64,000 nt of DNA from an uncultured Candidatus Saccharibacteria bacterium (GCA_964403045.1 CAYOEP010000001.1:9009-73008), one strand, 5' to 3'. Shown: positions 1 to 47,125, counted from the stretch's first letter. Translations and numbers: made by a program. Notes: generated from the letters alone by a model not told the origin.

Positions 1-381
1 CTGTCGCTGAGCACCTCTTCTTCCTTGTTGGCGATCTTTACCACTTTGCCGTCTGGCTGGATAAGCAGCACGCTGCTGTCTTCGCGCACAAAGTAGTCTG
101 CCACGGGATTTTGCGCGACAGCTTCAAATACCGCCCGGGCTTCTTTACTGAGTTTTGTAGGATCAACTACTGGAAGAAGACTGCCGTCTTGGCCGATAAG
201 CCCTCCAGTTTCGGTAGTCGGCTGTGGCGGAGTACCGGGAGGGAGAAGTCCTCCTTGTGGTGTGCCAGGCCCATGTTCTCCCGGGGGCGTTACCGAAGTT
301 CCTCTGCCAAAGAGGAAGTAGGCAATTAGGATGATTGCCGCAATGAGCGCAATGATTCCAACGATAGAAAGAATACGCTTC
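1..381 (-). CDS. Partial CDS running off the window start; membrane-anchored protein (hypothetical)
   Basis: Minus-strand ATG at 381 opens a frame that continues past position 1. It reads MKRILSIVGIIALIAAIILIAYFLF..., one N-terminal TM helix followed by a Gly/Pro/Thr-rich segment. It is absent from the ORF track because it is truncated by the window edge. Confidence 0.5.
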
Positions 382-425
382 ATATTGAATCTGCTAATAA
401 TTATACACTATTGGCATTTGCGCTT

Positions 426-1094
426 TCATTGAACCACTAGACAGGTTCCCCCGGTACGCGACAATTTCACACAGCTTGTACAGGCGTTAGCTTCATTCAT
501 GCAAGCACTCATGGCCTTTTGGGGGCAAGGGGGAAGGGAAGGACAAGAAGCACATGGGCGGGTAAATGCTTCGTCATGAGGAGTTCTCGAGCGTACTTTA
601 CGACAAACAATCACATCTCTTTTTGTAGTATGCACGGTACCACTCATAAGCCATTGTTCGATGTCGTGGGGCACGCCACGCGCCTCGAGTTTTTGGACTG
701 CTGGGTTTTGTAGTTTTGCAATGTCGGGGTTGATGGTGTTGAAGATAAGAGAGGCTCCTACTAAGAGAAGTATTCCAGTGATTGCGCTCTTGATTCTGTC
801 TTTGGCGTCGGACTGCTTTGAGGCGTTGCCTGCCGAAACACTGTACTCAATAGCAGCAATTACGACGGCGCCGAAGGCGAGGAGCCCAACTACCGCGAGC
901 GAGAAGTTATAGAGGTTGCGGACAGTTTCCGCAGGAGTGTTCCCGCTTTCTCCCTCGGGAGTAGGGATGTACATTTTTACGTTAACCGCGTGCACTACTT
1001 GAAATGTAGAGAATATAGAAGCAATGAAGCCGATAATTAAGGCAAGCACAATGATGTTGCCGTTGCTACACTTAACCTTGGGAAGATTTGGCAT
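426..1094 (-). CDS. TrbC/VirB2-like T4SS pilin paralog with a Cys-rich C-terminal tail
   Basis: Two hydrophobic helices and the motif AIEYSVSAGNASKQSDAKDRIKSAITGILLLVGASLIF. The same motif recurs in the four pilin paralogs at 47122-48868 (SGG/AGD-x-EK...L.YAA...L.A). The C-terminal ~90 aa tail carries many Cys. The true start may be an internal Met. Confidence 0.55.
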   Translation of the reverse strand: MPNLPKVKCSNGNIIVLALIIGFIASIFSTFQVVHAVNVKMYIPTPEGESGNTPAETVRNLYNFSLAVVGLLAFGAVVIAAIEYSVSAGNASKQSDAKDRIKSAITGILLLVGASLIFNTINPDIAKLQNPAVQKLEARGVPHDIEQWLMSGTVHTTKRDVIVCRKVRSRTPHDEAFTRPCASCPSLPPCPQKAMSACMNEANACTSCVKLSRTGGTCLVVQ

Positions 1095-1108
1095 TTTCCT
1101 TGTTTTCT

Positions 1109-2323
1109 TTAGGGAAGGTAAGTAAGAGAGAGAGAAATATTTGCAGACGTAATTCCAAGCTGATCAGTGACATTTTCTGCTTCAACCAGAATATTTATTT
1201 CTTTCTTCTGTTTTACGTCAGTCATGTCTATGTCAAGAAAGGTTTGATTTTTGGGATTTGTTACAGAAGCACGATTTCCATCTATTTCCCATGAGAGGAT
1301 GATGCTAGCAAGGGCATCTTTGCTGTAGTAGAATATTTTTGCAGGGAGGCGTGCTTTTTGCGAGGAAAACACATGATGAGGAAAAGGCGCCTCGAGAACC
1401 ACCTTTGGAAAAATTACAGGCACGCGTATGGTAGTTACTGCACCCAGCCTTTCAGGGTGGTTTTTATAGTTTGATACTTCTACTCTTACCCTGTGGTAAG
1501 TATCTCCCATTCTAAATGTGCGGAAGGAGAAAGTCTGCAGCCCTATGCCGCTCTCTATAAGTTCATCATCAAGATACCATCGTATTTGCCTATTCGAGAG
1601 ATCTACCAGCTTATTGTTGTCTATAATATTGAATGACACGTTAATTTTGGTGGAGGGACCAGGGAGAGCTTTTCCTTGATACCCACGCGGTACGACACTT
1701 TCCGCTTTCCAGTCTATGAGAAATTGCACACTTGCTTCCTTGGCAAGTACTTCTTCTTCAGATTGTGGAATAGACATAAGGTAATTATTAAAACTCTCAA
1801 GCAACTTATCAAGAAGAGTGGTTGCTGCAGGATTATCTAAGGAGGGGGGGTTTTTTTCTAACTGTGAGAGCATTTCAAAAAAACTAGCTTCTGTTGTATT
1901 AGTTTGTTTGCCCTCTGTTGTAATATTAAGAGAATTAAGAAACTGTTCTAATGCTTGCTGAGAGGATTGGTTAGTAGCACTTCCGCTATTGAAATAAGTT
2001 TGATTAAGTTGCAATACTGATTTTACACCATCGATGATCTTTTGCCTCATGCTTTTTTTGAAGCCTTCTGCTTTGAGGTTGTTTTCTAACTCTTGGACAA
2101 GCTGTTGCTGATTTAATTTTCCGTTGGAGTATGCATCGAGGAGTGCGTTGCTAATGATATTTTTAAGAGATATTACTTCCGCTGAAGCACCTGCAGCAAC
2201 GGCAGACCCGGCATTTGCGGAGCTTAAGGAGAAAGAAAGGAAGGCTATGACAAATATGACAAAAAGGAAAATTATTGTTAGAAATCTCGCCCTAGCTTGC
2301 ATACTTGCATAATTGTTTACCAT
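1109..2323 (-). CDS. Secreted protein in the T4SS-like operon (hypothetical; helical N-terminal half, beta-rich C-terminal half)
   Basis: N-terminal signal/TM (FLTIIFLFVIFVIAFLSFSLSSANA) and no recognisable catalytic motif. It sits between the VirB4 and pilin genes on the same strand. Confidence 0.5.
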   Translation of the reverse strand: MVNNYASMQARARFLTIIFLFVIFVIAFLSFSLSSANAGSAVAAGASAEVISLKNIISNALLDAYSNGKLNQQQLVQELENNLKAEGFKKSMRQKIIDGVKSVLQLNQTYFNSGSATNQSSQQALEQFLNSLNITTEGKQTNTTEASFFEMLSQLEKNPPSLDNPAATTLLDKLLESFNNYLMSIPQSEEEVLAKEASVQFLIDWKAESVVPRGYQGKALPGPSTKINVSFNIIDNNKLVDLSNRQIRWYLDDELIESGIGLQTFSFRTFRMGDTYHRVRVEVSNYKNHPERLGAVTTIRVPVIFPKVVLEAPFPHHVFSSQKARLPAKIFYYSKDALASIILSWEIDGNRASVTNPKNQTFLDIDMTDVKQKKEINILVEAENVTDQLGITSANISLSLTYLP

Positions 2324-2390
2324 TTACCACTTGTGCTCCTCGGCTTTTACATTATAACATAACCACCCTTCTCGGATGCGCAGAACTCTC

Positions 2391-2741
2391 CTACTTTGAT
2401 GTTCTCGTGGTTTTCGCAATAACGTTTGCTTTTTTTGCAATCTTTGGATTATTAGTAATAAGCACAGTTATTAAAAAGCCGATAGTTTGTCCGAAAGGAA
2501 AGCCAAGAAGATCTGCAATACTTGTTGCAAGGTAAGCATTTCCTCTAACACCTTTAATGTTGAACCAGAGCTGAAGTGAAAACCAGAGGATAAGGCTGTA
2601 GGCTTTTGCAAAAGCAAGTAAAAAAAATCCAAGAATAGGTATAGCTACAAGGAACTCCCCCGCGACATCAAGCCCGTCACTTGCAAAAAGAAGGGGGAGT
2701 ACAATTAAAATTGTGGGGAGAGAGAATTTTTTTCCTTCCAT
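2391..2741 (-). CDS. Small polytopic membrane protein, T4SS-associated (hypothetical)
   Basis: MEGKKFSLPTILIVLPLLF... with about 3 TM helices. The ORF-track start at 2882 overlaps the VirB4 3' end, so an internal Met at 2741 was chosen. Confidence 0.4.
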   Translation of the reverse strand: MEGKKFSLPTILIVLPLLFASDGLDVAGEFLVAIPILGFFLLAFAKAYSLILWFSLQLWFNIKGVRGNAYLATSIADLLGFPFGQTIGFLITVLITNNPKIAKKANVIAKTTRTSK

Positions 2742-2754
2742 AATAGATAATAGA

Positions 2755-4497
2755 TTAGGAACCTTCGTCTGACTCTTGTAGCTCTTGAGCTTGCTCCATA
2801 AGCTGTTTGGGGTCGGTGGTAATAATTTTGTCTTCAAAGTAGGAAGCGATGATTTGAATGGCAACATGGTTTTGCCCCGCAAAGAAAAGGCCGGTCCCCC
2901 GCGGGGCTTCGAGGAGATAATTTTTCTCTGCTTCTGTGAGGTTGAATGCTTTCCCTACCACATCAATAGTCGCGGGCGATTGGCGGAGGAGAAGCTGGAT
3001 AGTGGAGTTGGTGATAATGGGGCGCCCGTATTTCGAGTTCAGGAAATCTTCCACGTCTTGGGTGATGGTGGTAATGCCAAGATAGTACTTTCGCCCCCTC
3101 TTAACAAGACCAAAGAGGAAGCGCGCGCCTTCCTCGTGCTGCATCATTGTCCACGCCTCGTCCACGATGAGGATACGCTTCGCGCGCCGCGCTCTGACGA
3201 GATTCCAGATAAAATTCAGTACAATATACATCGCGATGGGGCGGAGCTCATCTTCGAGATCGCGGATAGAGAAGATAATAAAGCGATTGTTTACGTCGAT
3301 GTTGGTGGGCTTGTTGAGGAATCCCGAAAAGCTCCCCTTGGTGTATTTGTAGAGGCGGTCAGCCATCCCCCGTCCCCCTTCGAGGTTGCGGAGAATAGTT
3401 TCGAGATCTTCGAGGAGCGGCGGCTCCGCTCCGGTGAAGTCTTCTCCTGGTACGATTTCGCGGGAGGCATATGCCTCGGTGATGGCGCGGTCGAGGATAG
3501 AATCCTCCTCGCTACTTAGTGAGCCGCCCAGCATTAGCTTGAGAAGTCCTGCGATATTGACAATATGCGAGCGGAGTACATCAGACGGATCTTCGCCTTC
3601 TGGCACGACGGGAACGTCGAAGGGATTAATGTGCTCTTCTGAGGAAAGGGAAATGTTGAAGTAGCTCCCCCCGAACGCCTCCGCGAGCGGCTTGTACTCA
3701 TTTTCAGGGTCAATCACGATGACTTCCGTGCCCATCATTAGGGAGCGGAGGATTTCCAGTTTGGTGGCATAGGACTTTCCTGCGCCGGATCGCGCGAACA
3801 CGACTTGGTTGGCATTTTCCAGCGAGAAACGGTCAAAGATAATAAGGCTGTTGTTCTGGCGGTTGATGCCGTACATAATGCCCTCGTCGGAGGTAAGGTT
3901 CTCTGAAACGAAAGGAAAGAAGGAAGAAAGCGGCCCCGAGTTCATTGGGTTCGTGATGGAAATTTTGTCTTCTACCATAGGCAGGATGGTGGAAAATCCC
4001 TCGAGCTGCTGGAAGAGTGCTGGCTTGAAGTAGGTAAGCTTCGCGTCCATCAGTGAAAGGACTTTGCTTTCCAGCTTCGCAAGCTCCTCTTTGCTGTCGG
4101 CATAGATTGTAAGGTAAACACCTACGTTGAAAAGTTTTTCTTGTGATTGCTGGAGAAGGTCGCGGAGATTTTCCACATCGTGAAGCGCAGTTTCGAGCAA
4201 GGGGTCCCGCACTTCCCCCTTTTCCTCTTTGTCTTCAAGCTGGGATTGTATCTGCGCGGTCTTTTTTCGGAGCTTCTTGAGCGCGATGCCGGTGTCGACA
4301 GGTGAGATATGGATGGAAATATCGAAAAGATTGGGGAGGTTGATGAGGGGCGCGAACCAGCCGGTGGAAAGATAGCGGGGATAAGAAAGGATATAGAGTG
4401 TTTTCGCAAACTTATCTCCTATCTTGAGATAGTTCGACTCGACTTTGATGCCTGAGGAGGCAATGATTTTTTTGATACTGTCAAACCTTTCTGACAT
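2755..4497 (-). CDS. virB4: VirB4/TrbE/CagE-family T4SS ATPase, C-terminal ATPase part
   Basis: Walker A FARSGAGKSYATK and Walker B ILIVDEAW. Upstream is the conserved PRYLSTGWFAPLINLPNLFDISIHISP region typical of VirB4. Confidence 0.85.
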   Translation of the reverse strand: MSERFDSIKKIIASSGIKVESNYLKIGDKFAKTLYILSYPRYLSTGWFAPLINLPNLFDISIHISPVDTGIALKKLRKKTAQIQSQLEDKEEKGEVRDPLLETALHDVENLRDLLQQSQEKLFNVGVYLTIYADSKEELAKLESKVLSLMDAKLTYFKPALFQQLEGFSTILPMVEDKISITNPMNSGPLSSFFPFVSENLTSDEGIMYGINRQNNSLIIFDRFSLENANQVVFARSGAGKSYATKLEILRSLMMGTEVIVIDPENEYKPLAEAFGGSYFNISLSSEEHINPFDVPVVPEGEDPSDVLRSHIVNIAGLLKLMLGGSLSSEEDSILDRAITEAYASREIVPGEDFTGAEPPLLEDLETILRNLEGGRGMADRLYKYTKGSFSGFLNKPTNIDVNNRFIIFSIRDLEDELRPIAMYIVLNFIWNLVRARRAKRILIVDEAWTMMQHEEGARFLFGLVKRGRKYYLGITTITQDVEDFLNSKYGRPIITNSTIQLLLRQSPATIDVVGKAFNLTEAEKNYLLEAPRGTGLFFAGQNHVAIQIIASYFEDKIITTDPKQLMEQAQELQESDEGS

Positions 4498-4502
4498 AGG
4501 CG

Positions 4503-5225
4503 CTAGGATGTTGCATTGTCGCTGGGAGCATTTTCCTCTCGTGTTTCTTGGGGTAGCTCGAGATCTTCCCGCTCCACAGTTTCCGGATTGTAGAAGTTGT
4601 AGAAAAGCTCTACGATTTCTTGGTCGTTGAGCACCTTTGTTTCCAACCCCATCGCACGGATTCCTCCCTCCACCTGTGCAACCCGCTGATTGAGCTGGTC
4701 GAGGTTGCGTGCAAAATTTTTCTCTGCCTCTTCTTGGATTTTCTTTTCCCGTTCCTTCTTACTCTCTTTTTTGAAGAATGGGAAAATGCCGCCAAATTTC
4801 GCGCCCGCCCCGCTGGCTAGCGAAACGGAGCCGGAGAACGTAACCACGACGAAGAATTTTTTCTCCATAATTTCATTTTCAGCGACGAACGCTTTCACAA
4901 ACTCGCGGTACTCGGTAAGCTGGTCGCGCAGGAGCTCGGACGGCTCTTCCTCAATACGCTTGTCGATAGTGGCAATGTAATGGTCGATATTGAGCTTGCG
5001 GGAGTGCACAATGATCTGCAGGGGAAAATCGATTCCATTGAGAAAATTTTGAAAGCTGTGCGTGAGGATGTTCTGCTCGTCAACTGATTTAAGAGAGAAA
5101 TTAACTCCGGAGACCATAATAATTTTCAAGAGGCGCCCGTCTTTTGCAAGAATTGCACCTTCCTTGAGGTCCTTGATAGGGATAAGGTCTTGCGTGTTGC
5201 CAAAATTCGCAGTGCTGGAGCTCAT
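4503..5225 (-). CDS. virB4: VirB4 N-terminal domain encoded as a separate ORF (split gene, or frameshift/pseudogene)
   Basis: IPIKDLKEGAILAKDGRLLKIIMVSGVNFSLKSVDEQ... matches the conserved start of VirB4/TrbE. It stops at TAG 4503-4505; the next ORF starts 5 nt downstream in a different frame. Confidence 0.6.
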   Translation of the reverse strand: MSSSTANFGNTQDLIPIKDLKEGAILAKDGRLLKIIMVSGVNFSLKSVDEQNILTHSFQNFLNGIDFPLQIIVHSRKLNIDHYIATIDKRIEEEPSELLRDQLTEYREFVKAFVAENEIMEKKFFVVVTFSGSVSLASGAGAKFGGIFPFFKKESKKEREKKIQEEAEKNFARNLDQLNQRVAQVEGGIRAMGLETKVLNDQEIVELFYNFYNPETVEREDLELPQETREENAPSDNATS

Positions 5226-5290
5226 AGAGATGGTAAGATTTTTGCTGCTTTAATTATATCCTGAGGGGGGCAAAGAGAAAAATGTTGTGG

Positions 5291-5794
5291 TTAATAATCT
5301 ACCCGCTTCGCGATCTTGCGTTGTCCTGAAATGTCTTCGAGAACTTCATAGCGCTCTTGCTGGCTTGCTGCCGCCTGCTTCTTTTGGGAGGAAGATTGCA
5401 GTTTGTGCCACGCCTGCTTGAGGGCAGTGCCGTAGATAATTTGGTCGAGGGCAATCCCGCTTTTCTTAGCTTCCTCCCGCAGTGCATCTTTCGATTTTTG
5501 CATATGGGGCTGATCCGGCTTCCACACGTAGGTTTGTGGGTTCCAGATGAAGAAGAACGCGGAGAGGAGGACTTTTGGGAGTTCGCGGCCATTGATTTTG
5601 ATGAAAGCAAGGGCGCCGGCAGCAGAAACGAGCACAAGGGAAATCATAAACCATGTCCCCATATTGCCGAGGAAAAAGAAGAGGAAAAACGAAATCACGC
5701 CCGCAGAGCCCACGTAGAGGAACTGCTTGAGCGTAAAAGGTCCGATGATTTTGTCTTCGGTTTCTATGAACTGGGGAACTTGGAATTGCGCCAT
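5291..5794 (-). CDS. PrgI-family (VirB3-analog) small membrane protein
   Basis: The N-terminus FQVPQFIETEDKIIGPFTLKQFLYVGSAGVISFFLFFFLG followed by a second TM is typical of PrgI-like proteins of Gram-positive-type T4SS. Confidence 0.6.
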   Translation of the reverse strand: MAQFQVPQFIETEDKIIGPFTLKQFLYVGSAGVISFFLFFFLGNMGTWFMISLVLVSAAGALAFIKINGRELPKVLLSAFFFIWNPQTYVWKPDQPHMQKSKDALREEAKKSGIALDQIIYGTALKQAWHKLQSSSQKKQAAASQQERYEVLEDISGQRKIAKRVDY

Positions 5795-5875
5795 AGCTTT
5801 GCTACCAGTATACCGCAGAATGGCCTGCCGCTACACTCTCGTCTCGCGGCTCTTAGGAGCGCTTTTGGGGAGATG

Positions 5876-6898
5876 TTATTTATCGGAAAGCTTTACTTTT
5901 TTGAGATGGGTGGTGTCTACTACCACACGGGGCGGGGTGGTAGCGCGCGGCGGTGGAGGCGGCGGAGGAGGAAGCGTGCCGCGCGCCTCTTTCTGCTGAG
6001 GGCGCGGAGGCGCTTGGGGCGGTGGAGATTGCGCGGAGGACGTGCCAATTTCAACGTGGGCAGGGCGGATATGGACGGTGGCAGACTGGATAGTAGAAGG
6101 AGCAGAGAAATCCTTTTTCTTCTCGAGAACATTTGATTTTACGGAGAGCCCTTTCTTGATCGGGGCGGCATCGCCGCGCTGGTAGAGCATATGCGGGGCT
6201 CGCACGGGAGGTTGCTGTGCGGGGCGGTGCGGTTGCGGCGGTGCGCTTGGCACAGGCGGGTGCGGGGATGCAGGCGGAGGGGAAGGATGAGAAACTGCCG
6301 CCGGCTTGGGAGTTGGCGGCTTGGGGCGAGGCGCAACAGGGGCTTGAGGCTTATGGATAACTACGCGGGGAGTGGAAATGGTGACTTCCTGCTGAGGAGG
6401 CTGCGGAGGTGCCTTTAGCGGAGGAGGGGCAGATTTATGCGAAGAGGTTGGTTGAGGAGGCGCGGAAGGAGGAGCTGGCTGTGCCGCTATTGCTTTTTTA
6501 GGGGGAAGCGTGGGGGGCGGTGTTTTTTTTTCTGGCTCCTGCGTTTCTTCTTCGTGGGGATGTGGGAGCGGCGCGTATACCTTGTCGAGCTCGTCGCGAA
6601 TGCCTTGGAAGATTCGATTCTCGAGGGAATTTGCAATACTTTCAGCAGTTTTGGGGTCAATCGAACTCTCTTGAGTAATAAGATGCGCTGCTTCTTCGGG
6701 ATGGAGAAAGCCGAGCAGCACGAGACCTGTCGCGCTCGCGATGGCAGGAACTTTTTCGGAGGGTATATGATGTTGCTCGGCAATTCGCGAAATTGTTTCC
6801 GCTATTTGAGGAGAGAAAATTAAGTCCTGAAGGAACTTGGGCAGGGTAAGAAATCGCTTGCGCGCCTGCTGAGTTGTAGGAATTGGAATGGCTGCCAT
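5876..6898 (-). CDS. Proline-rich low-complexity protein (hypothetical, T4SS-associated)
   Basis: Long PPxP/PQPP tracts and a poly-P run (PPPPPPPP). A structured N-terminal ~110 aa precedes the low-complexity region. Confidence 0.5.
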   Translation of the reverse strand: MAAIPIPTTQQARKRFLTLPKFLQDLIFSPQIAETISRIAEQHHIPSEKVPAIASATGLVLLGFLHPEEAAHLITQESSIDPKTAESIANSLENRIFQGIRDELDKVYAPLPHPHEEETQEPEKKTPPPTLPPKKAIAAQPAPPSAPPQPTSSHKSAPPPLKAPPQPPQQEVTISTPRVVIHKPQAPVAPRPKPPTPKPAAVSHPSPPPASPHPPVPSAPPQPHRPAQQPPVRAPHMLYQRGDAAPIKKGLSVKSNVLEKKKDFSAPSTIQSATVHIRPAHVEIGTSSAQSPPPQAPPRPQQKEARGTLPPPPPPPPRATTPPRVVVDTTHLKKVKLSDK

Positions 6899-6918
6899 AA
6901 GGAGTTAATAGGAGTTAA

Positions 6919-9171
6919 TTATGACGACGGATGTTCTTCGCTTGTGACGTTGCCCTTTTCATCAAAGGTGGTGCGAGAACGTACATTCCTCGGCGCCTCT
7001 TCAAGGTTTTCTTTGTCCACCGGCCTTCCCGACGCATCGTAGAGGACCACTTTTTCTTTTGTTGGTTCTGGGGATTTCTTCTCAGCCGAAGGCGTGCCGC
7101 CTTTCAGGAAAATCTCCAGCTCTTTCTCTCCCCGGATGCCAAGGATATTAAGCGCAGCGTTGCTGTTGAACCAGCGGCGGTTTTGCGGGCTGAAGTGCTC
7201 CGGCTTGAGCCCGATATCTTGAGCAGTCTTCTGGTAGGCGCCAAGCGCGTTGTTTTTAGCGAGTTCTTTAAAGAATTCCGACAAATTGTGCGGCGAGAAT
7301 CCCTTCGCAATGCCCAGTATAATTTCTGCCCGGAGAGAATGCAGACCAGCAGCATCCAGTCCATATGGAGTTTTGCCCTTTTTGATATCTTCCTCGCTGA
7401 CGGAAAAGATCTTTGAGAGAGCTTCCGGGCTTGCGGCCTTGAGAGCTTTCTCCTTCTTTTCTTTGAGTTTTTGAATTTCTTCTGCAGGGGCGCCGCGTTT
7501 TTCGGCGGCTTCGAGTTCTTGTTTTGCTTCCACGAGAGCAACGCCGGACTTTCCGCGAAGTTCTTCAAATGTCTTGGCACGGTGGAAGCGCTTAAACTTC
7601 CCTGCATTCTCTTTCGAGAGTAATTTCTCGGCTCCTTGTACTTCATTGAGTCGCCCCGCCTTATTGATGAGCTCCAGCATTGCAATTTGCTCGGGGGTGC
7701 TTTTTGCTGCGTGCACTGATTTGATCATCTGGTCTACGCTCATCTTCTTCTCAAGGCGTGCCTTTTCTGCATCTACGAGCTTCTCTCCGTGGCTCCGGGC
7801 GATCGTTTCTAACCCTCTCCCTGCTCTCTTTGTAAGTCTGCCAACGACAGGCACACTGTGAAGTGTTTTAATCCACCCCTCTGCTGCCTCCTTGTTCTGA
7901 AGTTGTTCAGTGATTTTCTGACCTCGTTCTGTTCGCAACGGCGCAGTGGCTATTCTCCCCATGCCTCTCCCGATGCCTCGCGCTCCGCGCGCCGCTCCCA
8001 TGCCCATAAACCTTCCGCCTTTCTTCGCCCATGCCATTGCCGTTCCTGCTCCTGCAATAGAAAGCCGTTGTGCTACTACAAGTCCTCCCCATATAAGACC
8101 AACGACTACCGCAGATTGCAATCCTGCTTTCAGAATATGGGCGAAAGTCTCTGTTATGAACTGAACTATGCCTTTATAGGAATCGCCTTTCGTTGCTGCA
8201 TCGACGTAAGGCTCTGTTGCAACTCCCGCCATTGCTGCAACCCATAAAAAGAAAAGCATAATTGGCGCGAAGATGGTCCACTTGATGAATACCGACCACC
8301 ATTCACTCCAGTATTTTCTCGTAGTTGGAAAGACCCAAAGTACCCAGATAAGTGGCATGATAATAAGAAGAATAGAAAGCACTACATACCGTATGAGGAG
8401 CATTATCCCAATTGCCCCAACGACTACCGATGTCAGAGCAAGTGCAACGGTCATGAATCCGAGCACGACGATAACATAAAATACTCCTTCCGATTGCGCT
8501 GTTTCCGCGAATACCGATTTTAACTCATTAGCGGCTTGTTTATCTAAATGCCCGGAGCCCGGCTCATTTTCCGGCGTAAAAAACCGCTGGGGATTCAAGG
8601 CCCCCATAATCCTTATGGATAAGCCATCCGGTCCATTGAATCCCTTATCGATGATATATGAGGTAAAAGAATCTGCGGTCCCGATAATGGGCCCTACGAT
8701 CACGAGACTGAAGTTGACGAGAAGCGCGGCGATGATGAGCTTTGCGAAGGCTTTCTTGATGCCGTATTCTTGGACACGAAGAATAGTTGCAACAGCGATG
8801 ACAATTAGGATTGCAGCGAAGCCAAGGTTTGCGATAGAAAGTGATGCCTGAAAACCGTTTTCAACAGTTAGATTGTTATTGAGAATATTCTTGCTTACTT
8901 CGAGAATGAGGTCGATAAAGAAGAATTCCACGTTGAGGATGAACGCGAAAAATGTCGCTATTGCTGAGGCGAGCATTCCGACCACATAGCCGAAGAACCA
9001 TTGGAGGGCGCTCTCAAAAGAAGCTCTCGCGGGCAAGGGAGAAGAAATTCCTACGAATGTTGCAACGGCAAGGAGCAGAAATAGGAAGGGGACTAAGGGG
9101 CGTTTCTTGAATTTTGGACGTACCTGCACAATGGTCAAAACCCTTCGCTTTTTTGATGGTTGTATTGCCAT
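6919..9171 (-). CDS. VirB6/TrbL-like polytopic membrane protein with long cytoplasmic C-terminal extension
   Basis: At least 7 TM helices in the N-terminal 400 aa, followed by a Gly/Arg-rich segment (GMGAARGARGIGRGMGR) and a helical, charged C-terminal tail. It lies immediately upstream of the virB4 block. Confidence 0.55.
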   Translation of the reverse strand: MAIQPSKKRRVLTIVQVRPKFKKRPLVPFLFLLLAVATFVGISSPLPARASFESALQWFFGYVVGMLASAIATFFAFILNVEFFFIDLILEVSKNILNNNLTVENGFQASLSIANLGFAAILIVIAVATILRVQEYGIKKAFAKLIIAALLVNFSLVIVGPIIGTADSFTSYIIDKGFNGPDGLSIRIMGALNPQRFFTPENEPGSGHLDKQAANELKSVFAETAQSEGVFYVIVVLGFMTVALALTSVVVGAIGIMLLIRYVVLSILLIIMPLIWVLWVFPTTRKYWSEWWSVFIKWTIFAPIMLFFLWVAAMAGVATEPYVDAATKGDSYKGIVQFITETFAHILKAGLQSAVVVGLIWGGLVVAQRLSIAGAGTAMAWAKKGGRFMGMGAARGARGIGRGMGRIATAPLRTERGQKITEQLQNKEAAEGWIKTLHSVPVVGRLTKRAGRGLETIARSHGEKLVDAEKARLEKKMSVDQMIKSVHAAKSTPEQIAMLELINKAGRLNEVQGAEKLLSKENAGKFKRFHRAKTFEELRGKSGVALVEAKQELEAAEKRGAPAEEIQKLKEKKEKALKAASPEALSKIFSVSEEDIKKGKTPYGLDAAGLHSLRAEIILGIAKGFSPHNLSEFFKELAKNNALGAYQKTAQDIGLKPEHFSPQNRRWFNSNAALNILGIRGEKELEIFLKGGTPSAEKKSPEPTKEKVVLYDASGRPVDKENLEEAPRNVRSRTTFDEKGNVTSEEHPSS

Positions 9172-9180
9172 TACCTCTTT

Positions 9181-10932
9181 TTAGAGAATTCCTTTTCTTA
9201 TGATTTCATTGAGCCTAGCTTTCGCTACAGACTTCACAAGATCAATTATTGTTTTCATTATCAGCTCTGAATTTTGCCCTACCGTGTTTGCTGTCTTTTG
9301 AATTCTTTCTTGGGCAACTTCTTGAGAGAGGGCTTCGACGACGAATTTCGCAGGTGTAGTATTTTTCCATTCATCGCAAAGTTTAACTGCACATGTATTA
9401 GGAACTTCAGAAGTTTTACAGTCCAAAGTTCCCTCTATGTAATCTTCTCCATAGTCTACCTTCGGATCATCGCCCTTGCCAATATATGCTCTATGAGAAG
9501 AAACGCACACACGAGTAGGGCGAAATCCGTTTCCCGATTCGGCGTCGGATTTCTCTGCTTCTTGCTTTTGCGACGCCCTCAGACCAACTTTTTCCTTCAT
9601 TGTAACAAGAGCCCCAAAAATGTTATTCTGCGGTTTCAGCATTTCACCGTAAGCGACCCACCCCCCCGTTTCGAAGCTTCGGTAAAAGTCTTTTACGTTA
9701 CTCACTACGTCATCTAATGTACACTCTACGCCTTCTTCTGGGGGAACATTAGGAAGCGGAGTCGCAGCAATAGTGAGGAGTGGACCAAAGGAATTGCACA
9801 GGAAAGGCGCGCTTTCTGCAACAACTTCACCCGCCGCGCTCTTTGCTGCCTTTTTGAGAAATCCTTTCCAGTCAGTGACAAATTTCGGTTTTTTCCCGCC
9901 TCTAACCCACGCAAGCGTTTGCCTTGCAATGCCATTAATTATCTTTGACTTGGCACTCTCTAGTAATTCTTCGCCTATTACATCCAAAATCATTTGAGCT
10001 ATGTTGCCTGGGTCAAACACAATATCTCCGAGTCCTAAGAAGGCATGTGCTGTGGGGATAGTCATAAACCCCTTTATAAAAGCAATGAAATGACTTTCCT
10101 CATGCTTCTGCTTGAGCAAGGAAGAAGGGTTCAGGGCAGAATGTAGCTCTTGGGAAAGTTGGTGCGATAGATTCTGTAGTTCTTTTTTCTGGACGTTGAA
10201 GACAAGAAGGGACTTTAGAGGATCAGTTGAATTGACGAGCGTGGAAAGTTGCTTTATTTGGGCAATCAAAAGAACAAATTGCTTGTGGAAAGAAGAGAAT
10301 AGCTCAGGCGCATGCAGCTCTAATACTTCCTGGAGCATCTTCTCTAGCATGAGATTTGTAGCTATGGAAAGGGTTCCTGCTTCCTCCTTGTTGGCAGCAA
10401 TATCGGTAAGATTTTTGATAGCACGCGTATATTTGTTGAAAAACCCCTCAAGACGCTCAAGATAGCCAGATGTATCTGCGGACGGATCTATAATTGCCTG
10501 GGAAGCAATTTTCTCTGCCTTGCGTCGAAGCAACTGCAATTCTTGCTTTATTTCGGAAACTCGATCTGGCGTGAGAATGTCCGTAGAGTTTGTTTGAGCG
10601 AGATTCAATTGCTGCAGAATCTGCTCTTTGCTAAGCTTATTGGCGTCTTTCTCTTTGAGGAAAAGAGAAACTTTGTGTAAATCAATTGCAGTAATTTCTT
10701 TGATAACAGCGTCGGAAAACGCTTCAGTGAGGGTAAAGGGTTCGGAGGAAAGGGTTGCTGGGGGGATAGCTTCGGTGCCGATAGCATTGACAGGGACAGT
10801 CGTCTGGACGTCCTGCGGCGGCGCGGAGGAGTGCGCAGAGAATGAAGAAGAGAAAAAGAACGAGAAAGAGCCCGTCGCTGTTGCTACGACAAGGAATGTG
10901 GCGGCAAGCGTTCTGAACGATGGATGCTCCAT
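9181..10932 (-). CDS. Large secreted Cys-containing protein, first gene of the T4SS-like operon (hypothetical)
   Basis: Signal peptide (MEHPSFRTLAATFLVVATATGSFSFFF), 583 aa, several Cys pairs near the C-terminus. Confidence 0.5.
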   Translation of the reverse strand: MEHPSFRTLAATFLVVATATGSFSFFFSSSFSAHSSAPPQDVQTTVPVNAIGTEAIPPATLSSEPFTLTEAFSDAVIKEITAIDLHKVSLFLKEKDANKLSKEQILQQLNLAQTNSTDILTPDRVSEIKQELQLLRRKAEKIASQAIIDPSADTSGYLERLEGFFNKYTRAIKNLTDIAANKEEAGTLSIATNLMLEKMLQEVLELHAPELFSSFHKQFVLLIAQIKQLSTLVNSTDPLKSLLVFNVQKKELQNLSHQLSQELHSALNPSSLLKQKHEESHFIAFIKGFMTIPTAHAFLGLGDIVFDPGNIAQMILDVIGEELLESAKSKIINGIARQTLAWVRGGKKPKFVTDWKGFLKKAAKSAAGEVVAESAPFLCNSFGPLLTIAATPLPNVPPEEGVECTLDDVVSNVKDFYRSFETGGWVAYGEMLKPQNNIFGALVTMKEKVGLRASQKQEAEKSDAESGNGFRPTRVCVSSHRAYIGKGDDPKVDYGEDYIEGTLDCKTSEVPNTCAVKLCDEWKNTTPAKFVVEALSQEVAQERIQKTANTVGQNSELIMKTIIDLVKSVAKARLNEIIRKGIL

Positions 10933-11009: not shown

Positions 11010-11837
11010 TCAAGAACATGGGCCGCTGGCGCGGGAGGCGTGGAGAAGGCCGCTCAGCTTGCAGAGCGTTGCGGGGGTGAGGAGCTGGGCGCGTGCGGAA
11101 GGCGGCAGGGAGAGCCTGGAAAGTGCTGCACGAATTGCTACCTCTGGAAATGAAGTTTTAAGGTTATTGACAAGCGTTTTTCGGGGGTGCGCGAATGCGG
11201 CGTGGAGCGTGGTGTAATAGCGTTCCCTATCGCAGGGAAGGCGGTGGCGGGTGGTGAGCTTGATAAGGGCGGAGTCTACACGCGGCGGCGGCATGAAGGA
11301 AGTGCGGGGGATTGTGGTGATGAGGCGCGGCGAAGCCCAGAACTGCACGCTGAGCGCGAGCTTGTTGGCGCGCGGCGCGGTAGCGACAATGCGGTGCGCG
11401 ACTTCCTTTTGCACGACCAGCAGGCACCCGCGCGGCGGCGGCGCGAGCTCGCCTATTTTGCGGAGAAGGATGCCAGTAAGCGAATAAGGAATGCTCCCTA
11501 CAATCACATAGGAAGCATTGGAAAGCGAGGAGGGAATCTGAGGGAGAAGATCGCGTGCGTCGCCTTCCTGCAGGACTGCGGGGATAGGACATTGGGGGAG
11601 CGCTCGCGCAAGAAATGCTGCCAGCCTTCGATCTTTCTCAATTGCAATGATGTGGCGGTAGGGAGCGGCTCGGTCGCTCGCCAGCGGCAGGGTAAGCGCT
11701 CCCTTCCCCGCACCTATTTCCACCACTGTTTCCGCAGCAAAACTGCGCGTTGCATCGAGAATGCGTTGGATGATTGCCCTGTCATTGAGGAAATGCTGTC
11801 CCCATTGCTTCCTTTTCTGTGGGGGGCTATATGGCAT
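11010..11837 (-). CDS. rsmA: 16S rRNA (adenine1518/1519-N6)-dimethyltransferase
   Basis: GQHFLNDRAII signature, SAM-binding VVEIGAGKGALT, C-terminal helical domain. The start was trimmed to MPYSPP..., because the longer ORF overlaps the divergent gene. Confidence 0.85.
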   Translation of the reverse strand: MPYSPPQKRKQWGQHFLNDRAIIQRILDATRSFAAETVVEIGAGKGALTLPLASDRAAPYRHIIAIEKDRRLAAFLARALPQCPIPAVLQEGDARDLLPQIPSSLSNASYVIVGSIPYSLTGILLRKIGELAPPPRGCLLVVQKEVAHRIVATAPRANKLALSVQFWASPRLITTIPRTSFMPPPRVDSALIKLTTRHRLPCDRERYYTTLHAAFAHPRKTLVNNLKTSFPEVAIRAALSRLSLPPSARAQLLTPATLCKLSGLLHASRASGPCS

Positions 11838-11880
11838 AAAGTTATCGATTCTCCTTGCGTGTTGCTTTCTATATTGTATA

Positions 11881-12924
11881 ATGCCAAGTATTAGTACAGC
11901 TTCTACAATTGCAAAGAACATCCAGGAAAGCAAGGCGTTGGTGGGAAAAGCGCTTTTTCTCTTGTGCATTGCGGTAGTGCAAGGAGTGCTATGGTATAGC
12001 GCTGACAGCAGGAAGGGAATTCTTGGCGGTCCCGTGGAAGTGCAGAAAATTCTTGCTGCAGATATTGCCCTACCCCGCGCGGTGCTCTCCGATGTCCCTT
12101 TTCTCCGCGAGGAGAAAGCACGGGATGCTGCATTGGCGGCGCAGGGGCAACTCCTCCCGTCCAGCGCCGAGGAAAGTGCCGCACTCCGCGCGACAGGGAA
12201 TCCTCTAGGGGTGCTCGCAGGCTCTCCCGGTGTGGTTATCTACCATGTGAAGAAGGGCGACACGCTTTCTGGGATCGCGAGTCGGTTTGGAATTTCCCTA
12301 CGGACGGTGGTGGCAGCAAATCCTGAGGTGCGCGCCCGCGCGCTCCACATCGGGCAGTCACTCTACATTTTGCCAGTTGCCGGTGTGGTCTACACAGTAC
12401 TTCCCGGCGACACGCTTGCGAGTATTGCGAAAAAGTTTGACGTTACCGTAAAAGAACTGCGGCAATACAACCACACGCTTGAAAGCGAGGGGTTGCGCCC
12501 CGGGATAAAGCTTGCAATCCCTGGTGTCGTGCCTGAAATAAAGGCGGACAGATCCTATGCAAAAGCGCGGCGCTACTTCGTGCAGCCCGCCCAAGGACTG
12601 AACTGGGGAAAGCTCCATCCTAAGAATGCGGTAGACATTGCAAATGCGTGCGGCACGGAAGTGGATGCAGCGGCTGAAGGGCTCGTGGTAGATATAGGAA
12701 GGAAGGGATGGAACAGCGGCTATGGCCACTATGTGACTATTGAGCATCCCAATGGGGCAAAGACGAAATATGGTCACTTGGGAGAAATTTCTGTTGCCAT
12801 AGGAGACTATGTTGCCCAGGGGCAAAGAATTGCCGAGATGGGCAATACAGGAAACGTGCACGGGCCCACTGGCTGCCATCTTCACTTTGAAGTTTACGGG
12901 ATGGCGAATCCCTTTGTGCGCTAG
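11881..12924 (+). CDS. LysM-domain M23 family peptidase (membrane-anchored)
   Basis: Two LysM repeats (YHVKKGDTLSGIASRFGIS...; YTVLPGDTLASIAKKFDVTVKELRQYN) and an M23 catalytic region (HYVTIEHPNGAKTKYGHL...GNTGNVHGPTGCHLHFEV). Confidence 0.85.
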   Translation: MPSISTASTIAKNIQESKALVGKALFLLCIAVVQGVLWYSADSRKGILGGPVEVQKILAADIALPRAVLSDVPFLREEKARDAALAAQGQLLPSSAEESAALRATGNPLGVLAGSPGVVIYHVKKGDTLSGIASRFGISLRTVVAANPEVRARALHIGQSLYILPVAGVVYTVLPGDTLASIAKKFDVTVKELRQYNHTLESEGLRPGIKLAIPGVVPEIKADRSYAKARRYFVQPAQGLNWGKLHPKNAVDIANACGTEVDAAAEGLVVDIGRKGWNSGYGHYVTIEHPNGAKTKYGHLGEISVAIGDYVAQGQRIAEMGNTGNVHGPTGCHLHFEVYGMANPFVR

Positions 12925-14465
12925 GACAATACTGGCTCGCCCGCGCGAAGCCGGTAGCTGAACGCTTCGGCGAGGTGAGTTTCGGTTACATGAGGAGATG
13001 CTTCCAGGTCCGCAATTGTGCGGGCCACTTTTAATATTCGGTAGTAGCTCCGCGGGGAGAGATTCGCGCGTGCCGCTTGCTCAAGAAACCGAGTCGCCGC
13101 GTCGGTGAGTGCGACGAACCGCGTTGTTTCCTTGCTGCTCATCTCTGCGTTTGTGCAGATAGGAAGGGAGGCAAACCGCGCCCGTTGCAGCTCCCGCGCC
13201 TGCTGCACCTGCACCCGCGCTTCTGCGGAAGTTATCGCCTCGTCGCTGGTGTTGCGGAGCGTTGCCAGAGGAACGCGGGCGACAAATATTTGGAGGTCAA
13301 TGCGGTCAAGCAGCGGCCCGGAAACCTTCTTTTGGTAGCGCGCCACTTCATGGGCAGAACAGGTGCATTCCTTCTGGGTGTCTCCGTAGAAGCCGCAGGG
13401 ACACGGATTCATAGCCGCAAGAAGACTGAAGCGTGCGGGGAAGCGCACGGTGCTCGCGGCACGCGATACCACCACATTCCCCTCTTCGAGTGGCTGGCGG
13501 AGCGCTTCGAGTACATTCCTGGGAAATTCGGGGAGCTCGTCGAGGAAAAGGACGCCCCGGTGTGCAAGGCTAATCTCGCCGGGACGGGGATTGGTGCCGC
13601 CGCCAATCATTGCCGCAGGTGAGGCAGTATAGTGAGGTGCACGGAAGGGGCGGGTGCGCACCACGTCGCCGCCTGCGAGCCCCGCCGCGCTGTATACCTT
13701 TGTCACTTCTATTGATTCCTGGGGAGTAAGTGGCGGAAGGATGCCAACGAGCGCCCGCGCCAGCATGCTTTTGCCCATCCCCGGGGGTCCTGCCATGAGA
13801 AGATTGTGGTTTCCCGCGGCGGCGATGAGAAGTGCACGTTTTGCGCTCTCCTGCCCTTTAATTTCCGCGAGGTCGGGAATTTTGTTTTCTTGGGAAGGGC
13901 CTCCGGTACTACGGGACTGCACTTCGCGCGGCGCAGATCTTCCCTCGAGGATATCGATAAGCTCGCGGAGGCTTGCGGCCGGGACAATCATAATGTCCTG
14001 CACGAGCACTGCCTCCCCCGCGTTCTCTTGCGGGAGAATAAGTTTGTCGAACTTGAGGGTTGCCGCAAGCTCTGCGATGCTGAGCGCTCCCCGCACGGGG
14101 CGGATACTGCCATCAAGGCCAAGTTCTCCGAGAAAGAGAATGCGCTCCTCGCGCTTCGGTTTGAGCTGACCGGAGGCAAGCAGGTAACCGATTGCGATGG
14201 CGAGGTCATAGTGCGACCCTGCCTTCTTCACGGAAGCAGGGGCGAGGTTCACGGTGATTTTTCGATTGTCTCTGTTGGGAGGCTTCGCGCCAACGTGCTT
14301 CAACGCGGAGCTGACGCGCTCCCGCGCTTCGTTCACTGCCTTGTCTGCGAGCCCCACGATGTTGAACGCATGCAGACCTACATTGAGGTCCACTTCTACT
14401 TCTACCAGTGCTGCGTCTACTCCTTCCAGCTCGGCCGCGTAGACTTTTGCAAACTTTTTCTGCAT
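12921..14465 (-). CDS. comM: YifB/ComM family Mg-chelatase-like AAA+ ATPase
   Basis: Characteristic N-terminus (AELEGVDAALVEVEVDLNVGLHAFNIVGLADKAVNEARERV), Walker A LLMAGPPGMGKSMLA and a C-terminal Mg-chelatase ChlI-like region. Confidence 0.85.
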   Translation of the reverse strand: MQKKFAKVYAAELEGVDAALVEVEVDLNVGLHAFNIVGLADKAVNEARERVSSALKHVGAKPPNRDNRKITVNLAPASVKKAGSHYDLAIAIGYLLASGQLKPKREERILFLGELGLDGSIRPVRGALSIAELAATLKFDKLILPQENAGEAVLVQDIMIVPAASLRELIDILEGRSAPREVQSRSTGGPSQENKIPDLAEIKGQESAKRALLIAAAGNHNLLMAGPPGMGKSMLARALVGILPPLTPQESIEVTKVYSAAGLAGGDVVRTRPFRAPHYTASPAAMIGGGTNPRPGEISLAHRGVLFLDELPEFPRNVLEALRQPLEEGNVVVSRAASTVRFPARFSLLAAMNPCPCGFYGDTQKECTCSAHEVARYQKKVSGPLLDRIDLQIFVARVPLATLRNTSDEAITSAEARVQVQQARELQRARFASLPICTNAEMSSKETTRFVALTDAATRFLEQAARANLSPRSYYRILKVARTIADLEASPHVTETHLAEAFSYRLRAGEPVLS

Positions 14466-31559: not shown

Positions 31560-31661
31560 GCGCGTAGCCCGGCTTTTGTGGCAGTGGCGAGCGGGGTGCT
31601 CGCGTGCGGTTTTTCTGGAGAGTGGACAGAGGAGAAGAGAGTGTGCTACAATAGGCGCGCT

Positions 31662-32426
31662 ATGGAACAACATTCATCACCGTCCGCAGCAAGCGTATAC
31701 GCGCTTCCCGCCGCGATTGTGCTTGCGGGCGCACTTATTGCGGGAGCAGTGCTCTACACAGGGGCACATTCTTCATCTCCTGCCCTGACAGGAAATGTCG
31801 CCGCAGTCGCGGGGACTGCAGGAAAAACGGCAGGGCAAAGAGGCGCCCCCCAGCCTTCCCCATCTCCAGCGCTAGACGGCTTGCGGAAGGTTACGAAGGC
31901 GGACCATATACGAGGCAGTGTCAGCGCGCCGGTAAAAGTTGTTGAATTCTCTGATATGGATTGTCCTTTCTGCGCCCGGTTTCATCCCACGATGCAGCGT
32001 ATTATGCAGGAGTACAAGGGGAAGGTTGCATGGGTTTATCGCCACTACCCACTTGATAGCCTGCACCCTGGTGCCCGCCCCGCGGCAGAAGCAGCAGAAT
32101 GTGTGGCGGAGCAGAAGGGCAATGACGGTTTTTGGCAGTATGCGGACAAGTACTTTGCAGCACGGTCTTCCGGCCAGCAGCCTGACCTAGATAAGCTTGC
32201 TATGGAAGTTGGCGTCAATATGGATCAGTTCTCGAAGTGCCGCAGTTCACGGAAATATGCAAAGCGGGTACAGGAGGACGCGGACGATGCGACGGCGTCG
32301 GGCGCGCGGGGAACGCCCTACAGCGTGGTGATTGCGCCGAACGGGCAGAAGTTTTCGTTGAACGGCGCGCAGCCCTATGAAGCAGTACGCCGGATGATTG
32401 ACGCAGCACTCAAGCTTACGAAGTAA
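31662..32426 (+). CDS. dsbA: DsbA-family thiol:disulfide oxidoreductase (membrane-anchored)
   Basis: The CPFC active site (DMDCPFCARFHP) in a thioredoxin-fold context, with an N-terminal TM. Confidence 0.8.
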   Translation: MEQHSSPSAASVYALPAAIVLAGALIAGAVLYTGAHSSSPALTGNVAAVAGTAGKTAGQRGAPQPSPSPALDGLRKVTKADHIRGSVSAPVKVVEFSDMDCPFCARFHPTMQRIMQEYKGKVAWVYRHYPLDSLHPGARPAAEAAECVAEQKGNDGFWQYADKYFAARSSGQQPDLDKLAMEVGVNMDQFSKCRSSRKYAKRVQEDADDATASGARGTPYSVVIAPNGQKFSLNGAQPYEAVRRMIDAALKLTK

Positions 32427-45817: not shown

Positions 45818-47125
45818 ATGCCGTTTGGCTTAACACAAAAACAGCTCGCCATTGTGCTCATCGGGGCTATTCTAGTGGGAGGCATTGGCTTTTTCCTCTA
45901 CATTAACATGGGCGGTAAGCGTAATAGCAGCGGCGTGCCGGGAGGGGATGTTATCGAGTTAACAGCATGGGGCCCCTTTCCTGAAGCGATGCTTAAGGAC
46001 GCAATCGATAGTTTTGATGGCGCCAAAATTATCTACACCCAAATCGAACCTTCGAAGTATAAGAAGAAGCTTTTGGATGCGCTTGCGGCAGGCAAGGGGC
46101 CGGATATCTACATGGTGGATAGCCGCGCGCTTCCTCAAGAGCTGGAGAGGATTGTGTCTGCTCCCGGCGGGAAGATTACGCCGGTAGAAGTGCAGCAGCT
46201 TTTTCCCGATGTAGTAACGCACGATTTTGTATATGAGTCAGAAGATGGCACTCCAAATATTTACGGGCTCCCGCTCTACCTTGACACACTTGCCCTTGTC
46301 TACAACAAAGATATTTTCAACCAAGAAGCCGTCCTCCGTCCTCCTGCTACTTGGGAGGAATTCCAGCAGGTCGTGCAGCATCTTCGTAAACTTAATCAGT
46401 ACGGGCAAATTACCCGCGCCGCCGCCGCGATAGGGGGCTCAAAGAAAAGCATCGCAAACGCGGTGGATATTTTAAACCTCTTGATGCTGCAAAATGGCAC
46501 AAAATTTGTGGACGAAAAGACAGGACACGCGGTTTTTGCTGGAGGCAGGGCTGGGGAAGAGGCGTTGAACTTCTATCTTCAGTTTGGCAACGCGGGATCC
46601 CCCTACTACACCTGGAATGATCTGCAGGGCGACTTCCTCCAGCGGTTTGTGGACGGAAAAGTGGCGATGATTTTTGCCTATAAGTCGCAGGTAAACGACA
46701 TTCTCGCCCGCGCCCCGTTCCTCAATTTTGCAATTGCCCCTGTGCCGCAGCCGGAAGGGAGGGAAGTGGACGTCAACTATCCTTCCTATTGGGGACTTGT
46801 AGTCTCATCGCAAACGAGGGAGCCGGAGGTGGCATGGGACTTTGTAGTGCACGCGGCAACAGACGAGGACGCTGCACAAGCAAGAATTACCGCTACCAAC
46901 TTGCCCCCCGCACTCAAATCGCTCTATGAGCCTTTGCTGAATGATCCTAGCTACTACGCGTTCGTACAGGAGGCACTGACGGCGAAATCGTGGCACCAGC
47001 CGGATGAAGAGCTCGTGCAAGAGATATTTTCTACAGCAATGCAGCGTGTGCTTGCGGGGAAAACGGATGTGCAGGGGGCGCTGCAGGAGGCTGAGGAGAA
47101 ATTGAACGAGGAAGTACTACAATGA
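45818..47125 (+). CDS. ABC transporter extracellular solute-binding protein (family 1, sugar-type), membrane-anchored
   Basis: N-terminal TM anchor and an SBP_bac_1-like pattern (GPDIYMVDSRALPQE...MIFAYKSQVND). Confidence 0.7.
   Translation: MPFGLTQKQLAIVLIGAILVGGIGFFLYINMGGKRNSSGVPGGDVIELTAWGPFPEAMLKDAIDSFDGAKIIYTQIEPSKYKKKLLDALAAGKGPDIYMVDSRALPQELERIVSAPGGKITPVEVQQLFPDVVTHDFVYESEDGTPNIYGLPLYLDTLALVYNKDIFNQEAVLRPPATWEEFQQVVQHLRKLNQYGQITRAAAAIGGSKKSIANAVDILNLLMLQNGTKFVDEKTGHAVFAGGRAGEEALNFYLQFGNAGSPYYTWNDLQGDFLQRFVDGKVAMIFAYKSQVNDILARAPFLNFAIAPVPQPEGREVDVNYPSYWGLVVSSQTREPEVAWDFVVHAATDEDAAQARITATNLPPALKSLYEPLLNDPSYYAFVQEALTAKSWHQPDEELVQEIFSTAMQRVLAGKTDVQGALQEAEEKLNEEVLQ

Follow-up and report, generated by a model that had tools for sequence, protein, structure and literature searches.

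The present analysis concerned the first 10,932 nucleotides of a 64,000-nucleotide stretch of DNA, hereafter the window, from an uncultured Candidatus Saccharibacteria bacterium (GCA_964403045.1, CAYOEP010000001.1:9009-73008). It indicated, with a probability that we put at about 80%, that this region is a chromosomal, origin-proximal type IV secretion system (T4SS) operon typical of Patescibacteria (class Paceibacteria/Parcubacteria), derived from the conjugation machinery of monoderm bacteria known as MPF-FATA. This reading is carried by a VirB4 ATPase with its TrsD-like partner, PrgI/VirB3-type and VirB6-like membrane proteins and VirB2-like pilins, by a gene order that recurs in relatives, and by housekeeping neighbours among which no relaxase or coupling protein was found.

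An earlier note, made from the sequence alone, had described ten co-oriented minus-strand genes at 1-10932, and all of the corresponding open reading frames (ORFs) were indeed recovered, the tenth starting at 383. They are separated by gaps of 5-81 nt, which fits a single transcription unit. Neither promoter consensus sequences (17, versus 12 +/- 3.7 in shuffled controls) nor terminators (25, versus 18.4 +/- 4.9) exceeded the controls, and the ends of the transcript were therefore placed according to gene spacing. In the order of transcription, with lengths in amino acids (aa), the operon comprises:

9181-10932, minus strand: exported protein of 583 aa with 6 cysteines, the first gene of the operon (gene 1)
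6919-9171, minus strand: extended VirB6-like membrane protein, 750 aa, assigned through TrbL matches of its own and of its orthologues
5876-6898, minus strand: proline-rich protein, 340 aa, with orthologues in 30 loci
5291-5794, minus strand: PrgI/VirB3-type membrane protein, 167 aa, with two transmembrane (TM) segments (Pfam PrgI)
4503-5225, minus strand: TrsD-like protein, 240 aa, matching N-terminal VirB4 positions and TrsD in NCBIfam
2755-4497, minus strand: VirB4 ATPase, 580 aa (NCBIfam conju_CD1110, Pfam and PDB 4AG5)
2391-2741, minus strand: small polytopic membrane protein, 116 aa, with three hydrophobic segments
1109-2323, minus strand: exported protein of 404 aa, with positional orthologues in 23 loci (gene 8)
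426-1094, minus strand: VirB2-like T4SS pilin, 222 aa (Pfam T4SS_pilin)
1-383, minus strand: 5' part of gene 10, the first 127 of 434 codons, about 920 nt more lying outside the window

Motor, membrane components and pilins

Proteins were compared with Pfam, NCBIfam and PDB sequences, using the Pfam gathering and NCBIfam equivalog cut-offs. Relatives of the window VirB4 were gathered as 556 stretches, one genome per GTDB species being scanned, and gene-order counts refer to the best 80 of them, which share 54-76% identity with it and are almost all labelled Patescibacteria or Paceibacterota. Three loci with patescibacterial-type virB4 operons (L032, L038 and L055) were binned as Crocinitomicaceae, Gammaproteobacteria and Bdellovibrionales, labels which likely reflect mis-binning rather than transfer.

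The VirB4 ATPase matched the NCBIfam model conju_CD1110 at 1.4e-118 (397 bits, for a cut-off of 325) over positions 186-734 of 752, and is devoid of about the first 185 positions of full-length VirB4. Its Walker A (ARSGAGKS, residue 235) and Walker B (ILIVDE, residue 442) motifs are both intact, as the earlier note had expected. Pfam matches were obtained with P-loop_TraG (2.5e-27) and CagE_TrbE_VirB (1.4e-4), and residues 202-560 matched PDB 4AG5, the C-terminal domain of a Thermoanaerobacter VirB4, at 5.1e-47. The VirB4_plasma model, built on integrative and conjugative elements (ICEs) of Mollicutes, also matched at 3.3e-90, below its equivalog cut-off.

The TrsD-like ORF, which stops 5 nt upstream of virB4, had as its best NCBIfam match positions 101-234 of VirB4_plasma (9.2e-14), together with VirB4_CagE positions 7-176 (3.1e-9), TrsD (1.2e-8) and CD1110 positions 1-129; no Pfam match was obtained in the scan, and its family profile found nothing significant among PDB sequences. 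Of 71 relatives, 64 have a gene of this type immediately upstream of virB4, and the two are merged into a single ORF (769-804 aa) in 5 loci. Since the two window ORFs tile full-length VirB4 models and are fused in these five relatives, the division of VirB4 into N and C parts, already proposed in the earlier note, is right.

The PrgI protein matched its Pfam family at 4.7e-9, above the cut-off, and PrgI is present in 76 of the 80 related loci. The VirB6-like protein has about seven hydrophobic segments within residues 23-367, followed by a hydrophilic C-terminal domain of ~380 aa. Its own match to Pfam TrbL (5.3e-3, profile positions 6-212 of 215) is below the cut-off; TrbL nevertheless leads the family matches of its positional orthologues (7 of 41, best 8.6e-8), and the identical protein in a public contig carries TrbL_3 in its precomputed annotation. 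A VirB6-like identity, as initially proposed, is thus suggested with moderate confidence by these similarities.

The operon pilin matched Pfam T4SS_pilin at 2.9e-8, above the gathering cut-off. It displays a signal or anchor segment and two TM helices around a SAGN..K loop, and ends in a tail of ~90 aa after the second helix (426-830, codons ~135-222) holding 8 of its 9 cysteines. Tails rich in Cys and Gly are found in all its positional orthologues, where they differ widely in length and reach up to several hundred aa. By analogy with VirB2, such a tail would be displayed outside the cell if the topology is the same. A match to the NCBIfam model of the pilin-like protein Mbov_0395, from a Mollicutes ICE, was seen at 1e-5, below the cut-off.

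The four VirB2-like paralogs that the earlier note had placed at 47122-48868 all matched T4SS_pilin, and are encoded 46 kb away:

47122-47595, plus strand: distal pilin paralog 1, 157 aa (T4SS_pilin 3e-4)
47592-47957, plus strand: distal pilin paralog 2, 121 aa (T4SS_pilin 2.3e-10, TrbC/VirB2 3.1e-4)
48024-48443, plus strand: distal pilin paralog 3, 139 aa (T4SS_pilin 2.4e-8)
48485-48868, plus strand: distal pilin paralog 4, 127 aa (T4SS_pilin 5.6e-4)

These pilins are 17-26% identical to the operon pilin and minimal in architecture. Three of the four have one cysteine before the first TM helix and one at the extreme C-terminus, a pair which could form a disulfide mimicking the head-to-tail cyclisation of VirB2/TrbC. 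The start of paralog 1 overlaps by 4 nt the stop of a solute-binding-protein gene (45818-47125), and the array is followed on the opposite strand (48953-51135) by genes for three proteins that are exported or in the membrane, one of them matching Big_1 weakly. Elsewhere in the window, a DsbA-like thioredoxin gene is found at 31578-32426. In a related locus (L030:5873-8116), a protein of 748 aa joins a T4SS_pilin domain to an NlpC/P60 peptidoglycan hydrolase domain.

Gene order and genomic neighbourhood

The sequence to the left of the window was provided by a public contig, RFJQ01000347.1 (GCA_003695395.1, locus L081, labelled Candidatus Parcubacteria bacterium in GenBank), found by an exact look-up of the pilin sequence. 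It differs from the window by 6 mismatches in 11,094 overlapping bases and reaches 9.6 kb past position 1. Past gene 10, the opposite strand carries jag, yidC, rnpA and rpmH, and these are followed by dnaA, dnaN, yebC, ruvC and a gene for a class A penicillin-binding protein. The start of dnaA is ~2.65 kb left of the window, and the minimum of the cumulative GC skew lies 3.6-4.6 kb left of it, around dnaA/dnaN, which together place the operon next to the replication origin. Being transcribed towards the origin, the operon lies on the lagging strand.

In the closer relatives (Paceibacteria), the order ksgA, gene 1, VirB6, proline-rich protein, PrgI, TrsD, VirB4, small TM protein, gene 8, pilin, gene 10, jag/yidC/rnpA/rpmH and dnaA/dnaN recurs. 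Of the 53 loci whose flank is long enough, 33 have dnaA no more than 8 kb downstream of virB4. Such an arrangement, found in many of the best 80 relatives, is not due to chance.

Relaxase, type IV coupling protein (T4CP, VirD4) and VirB11 were sought with Pfam families in the scanned window ORFs of at least 130 aa and in the 9.6 kb of public contig, that is, ~73.6 kb in total, and none was found. This agrees with the earlier note, which had seen none of the three in the window and had set an adjacent conjugative module as a finding that would speak against it; the contig to the left of position 1 indeed holds the end of gene 10 and the genes from jag to the penicillin-binding protein, and no such module. 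The other assignable genes of the window are housekeeping genes, encoding ComM, a LysM-M23 peptidase, NusA, H+-pyrophosphatase, ClpP, TyrRS, FtsH, SHMT, FolD, GyrA, PNPase, RecA, a full-length FtsK and eight tRNAs. The absence of VirD4, relaxase and VirB11 from these ~73.6 kb, together with housekeeping neighbours, indicates that the locus is not an ICE.

Besides VirB4, FtsK (58257-60500) is the only protein of FtsK/HerA type among the scanned ORFs. It was considered as a coupling protein and ruled out, since its domain make-up (4TM, alpha and gamma) is that of a complete FtsK.

Upstream of the operon, ksgA (11010-11969, minus strand) begins a trio completed by a LysM-M23 peptidase gene (11761-12924, plus strand) and comM (12921-14465, minus strand), ksgA being 77 nt from gene 1. 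Both ksgA and comM share the head-on, lagging-strand orientation of the operon, and in relatives the orientation with respect to dnaA is the same. In the complete Nealsonbacteria genome L046, the positions of the trio are occupied by a ComM-like ORF (N-terminal sequence only), an ORF of 331 aa and a KsgA homologue. As annotated, ksgA and the peptidase gene overlap at their starts by ~200 nt, so at least one start is over-extended, and the true start of the peptidase gene is probably downstream of 11761.

Exported and envelope proteins

Five envelope proteins, specific to the lineage, are conserved in position in the relatives: gene 1, the proline-rich protein, the small protein with three TM segments, gene 8 and gene 10. 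Gene 1 begins with an N-terminal hydrophobic segment and a helical region, followed by a conserved core with the motif ..W.xGGxxPxFVTDWxGFL..LC..CTL..GGW.AY..NN..GF...C...TPG... Its family comprises about 6,000 representative clusters and has no Pfam model; in the Pfam scan, nothing but accessory modules (PKD, Big_7 and discoidin) was detected, and these in some relatives, and the family profile found nothing significant among PDB sequences. Gene 8 also starts with a hydrophobic segment, followed by a lineage-specific helical extension of ~190 aa. Its C-terminal half (~210 aa) is beta-rich and conserved, with W205, P212, G217 and W345 invariant. The protein yielded no Pfam or NCBIfam match and, with the family profile, nothing in PDB.

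The earlier note had proposed that these two large secreted proteins, which it saw as having no recognisable domains, could be adhesins or cell-wall hydrolases. Neither received a fold or an enzymatic assignment, and a hydrolase signature was not found: no lytic transglycosylase, NlpC/P60, CHAP or M23 domain was detected in genes 1 and 8 or in members of their families. Structure prediction, which the note had suggested, started from shallow homologue alignments (17 sequences for gene 1, two for gene 8); the AlphaFold2 model of gene 8 (pLDDT 44) was too poor to use, the model of gene 1 gave no hydrolase-like structural match, and no fold was obtained from either. An adhesin-like role of genes 1 and 8 is possible.

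Gene 10 starts at window position 383 and encodes 434 aa on RFJQ01000347.1 (L081:10712-12016). The protein has an N-terminal TM anchor, a Pro/Gly-rich linker and a TolB-like beta-propeller with two invariant cysteines, the propeller lying outside the window. A profile of the family (18 positional orthologues) matched TolB structures at ~1e-15 and a WD40 protein at 1.6e-22, and PD40 repeats were found in 3 of the 18 members. By these profile similarities, the last gene of the operon is assigned as a membrane-anchored TolB-like beta-propeller. Although unannotated in the public record, it is kept at the same position in the Paceibacteria relatives.

The proline-rich protein contains 21.5% proline and no TM segment, and has a conserved N-terminal domain of ~105 aa; no Pfam match was seen among the members of its family, nor any PDB match by profile. 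The small membrane protein, with its three hydrophobic segments, is likewise called at 116 aa by NCBI, and the true start of its ORF (2391-2882) is likely 2741, just past the virB4 stop. The relatives have a gene of this type directly after virB4, but the sequence is poorly conserved, with only 2 BLAST matches.

A further candidate for action on the cell wall is located next to the operon:

11761-12924, plus strand: protein with LysM (6.1e-26) and Peptidase_M23 (5.1e-25) domains

Judging from adjacency only, this LysM-M23 peptidase could be a peptidoglycan hydrolase that stands in for VirB1 and opens the wall. In Patescibacteria, M23 or LysM domains have been reported in some VirB1 homologues (Quinonero-Coronel et al., 2025; PMC12102498).

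Mechanism, competing explanations and known systems

From a mechanistic point of view, VirB4 hexamers, with TrsD, would dock on VirB3 and VirB6 in the membrane and, at the expense of ATP, pull pilins out of it and polymerise them into a pilus or tube reaching the host cell. The divergent pilin paralogs would offer alternative surfaces, and the exported accessory proteins would form or decorate the wall-crossing part outside the membrane. Such a machine may serve contact with the host and exchange of macromolecules, by import or export, rather than conjugation. These steps are drawn from known T4SSs and from published work on Saccharibacteria; gene content, motifs, context and conservation are what was observed here. 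A recent review has proposed a pilus conduit for exchange with the host (PMC12857230, 2025), and a 2026 preprint describes tubular structures, possibly T4SS pili, at a parasite-host interface.

A tentative extension, which we consider rather doubtful, is that the five unassigned envelope proteins and the pilin with its Cys-rich tail form an undescribed wall-spanning and pilus-tip module, replacing VirB5, VirB8, VirB1 and the diderm VirB7/9/10 core. A monoderm conjugation motor would then have become a host-piercing conduit importing host macromolecules, e.g., RNA or nucleotides.

Several points weigh against a T4SS operon devoted to host exchange. The operon of the present organism is known from its genes alone, and the VirB6-like protein of the window, taken by itself, falls below the Pfam cut-off. 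We know of no monoderm T4SS for which pilus formation has been proven. No VirB8 or VirB1 homologue was found within the operon using Pfam and NCBIfam, and half of the operon proteins are without assigned function, so that the mechanism given for the extracellular part is an inference. Membership of VirB4 in the Patescibacteria clade is suggested by similarity scores. Finally, a T4CP or relaxase could be encoded elsewhere in the genome, outside the ~73.6 kb examined; VirD4 homologues are indeed present in many Patescibacteria genomes, mostly far from virB4 (PMC12102498).

An unlikely alternative is that the operon encodes a T4CP-independent exporter of proteins or effectors, similar to Ptl of Bordetella or VirB of Brucella. 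Sec-exported substrates, possibly the products of genes 1 and 8, would then be delivered to or into the host, the pilins forming a short piston or channel in place of a long pilus. This would be in line with the lack of a T4CP nearby and with the N-terminal export signals carried by several operon proteins. The Southlakia system may, as has been suggested, export proteins (Wang et al., 2023; PMC10633639), and Ptl and Brucella VirB are cited as T4CP-less systems (PMC12102498). However, no effector-like gene or toxin domain was detected, and the exported proteins of the operon are conserved in position, like structural parts, and not variable as effectors would be. Such an exporter in fact overlaps with the host-exchange machine described above, from which it differs only in substrate and direction.

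Import of host DNA, for recombination or as a source of nucleotides, by a machine similar to ComB of Helicobacter or Ced of archaea and acting with ComM and RecA, appears quite improbable. The proximity of comM, two genes upstream, the presence of recA in the window, a partial match of VirB4 to CedB (2.4e-11) and the location of T4SS loci beside comF, recG and radA in class ABY1 (PMC12102498) may be put in its favour. The CedB match nevertheless reaches 43 bits for a cut-off of 700 and covers the P-loop region only, and the adjacency of comM could be plain origin-proximal housekeeping synteny. No homologue of VirB7, VirB8, VirB9 or VirB10 was found in the operon with Pfam and NCBIfam, and neither the ComB2-B10 set nor CedA/CedB was identified. 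Moreover, transformation in Southlakia needs comEC, whose deletion abolishes competence and leaves the cells viable, whereas the T4SS is essential (PMC12857230), which speaks against DNA uptake through ComEC as the essential role of the T4SS.

That the operon is a decayed or partial ICE, with relaxase, T4CP and integrase outside the sequence examined, is very improbable and was rejected on context: its VirB4 family was indeed defined on conjugative elements (CD1110 of CTn2, VirB4 of Mollicutes ICEs) and a tyrosine recombinase gene is present at 52164-53051 (Phage_integrase 1.7e-40, near a tRNA-Leu gene, region 51303-53051), but the operon is flanked by ksgA and the rpmH-dnaA origin region in an arrangement kept across dozens of species, no relaxase or T4CP was found in the ~73.6 kb examined, its GC content (0.46-0.54) resembles that of its neighbours with no compositional island, and the recombinase, probably XerC/D, is encoded among housekeeping genes at a distance of 41 kb. 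With housekeeping flanks and conserved synteny, the context of a mobile element was not found, no explicit search for att repeats having been made.

An origin-proximal T4SS operon of the Patescibacteria type remains the preferred reading, and known systems resemble it to varying degrees. Ptl of Bordetella and VirB of Brucella likewise operate without a coupling protein, an analogy of function only; they are diderm MPF-T systems with VirB7, VirB9, VirB10 and VirB11. Genes of Mollicutes ICEs (pilin-like Mbov_0395, VirB4 Mbov_0397) provide the best or near-best NCBIfam matches of the pilin, TrsD-like protein and VirB4, all with scores below the equivalog cut-offs, and the relationship is probably distant; these ICEs differ in being mobile and in belonging to wall-less bacteria. 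Their matches hint that VirB2-like pilins may pre-exist in the MPF-FATA lineage, which bears on the origin of candidate phyla radiation (CPR) pilins.

The MPF-FATA systems of Firmicutes (CTn2 CD1110, pCF10 Prg, pGO1 Trs) share with the operon a VirB4 that passes the CD1110 equivalog cut-off, homologues of PrgI and TrsD, and the lack of outer-membrane core components and of VirB11. They differ in being plasmid- or ICE-borne, in having surface adhesins along with a relaxase and a T4CP, and in being without VirB2 pilins, whereas the window operon is chromosomal and linked to housekeeping genes, and has pilins with no relaxase or T4CP in view.

Closer to it is the T4SS of Southlakia epibionticum ML1 (SEML1_0006-0019), where transposon sequencing (Tn-seq) showed epibiotic growth to depend on the cluster and on its pilins, all of them essential (PMC10633639). 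It is likewise of monoderm type, has pilin genes, lacks a coupling protein or relaxase that can be recognised and, judged by locus-tag numbers, is also origin-proximal. It differs in belonging to class Saccharimonadia, in having an array of 6 pilins inside the cluster, and in the peptidase and lysozyme genes that follow virB4. The window operon, by contrast, has one pilin within it and four others 46 kb away, has different accessory proteins, and is known here from genes.

Finally, no essential difference was seen from the Patescibacteria-clade T4SS (PMC12102498), whose VirB4 clade is related to MPF-FATA, with TrsD as its commonest partner and with PrgI-type VirB3, VirB6 and VirB2-like pilins near virB4. 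In that survey, relaxases occur in only about 100 genomes, T4CP genes are rarely adjacent to virB4, and the Paceibacteria locus is near dnaA, dnaN, ksgA, rnpA and rpmH. It also describes 441 pilin arrays of 2-11 divergent genes, with an average identity within arrays of ~25%, to which the 17-26% of the window pilins is comparable. All the features of this system were found within the sequence examined, namely an MPF-FATA-like VirB4, an adjacent TrsD, PrgI/VirB3 and VirB6, a VirB2-like pilin next to virB4 and a separate pilin array, no relaxase or nearby T4CP, and a chromosomal, origin-proximal site near dnaA, ksgA, rnpA and rpmH. The view of the earlier note, that of a stripped-down CPR T4SS repurposed from conjugation, accordingly agrees with the published one (PMC12102498, PMC10633639) and is not new.

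The locus is an ordinary member of an already described system, with no new principle; what it adds to the published survey (PMC12102498) is the TolB-like propeller as last gene, the large gene 1 family and the Cys-rich pilin tail. The T4SS of Patescibacteria, already catalogued across thousands of genomes, is a leading candidate for the exploitation of hosts by ultrasmall episymbionts, and is essential in the one species tested. The present locus offers a clean and compact reference operon of 10 genes with known boundaries beside the origin, in which the large gene 1 family, without a Pfam model, and the TolB-like propeller are reasonable targets for structural work.

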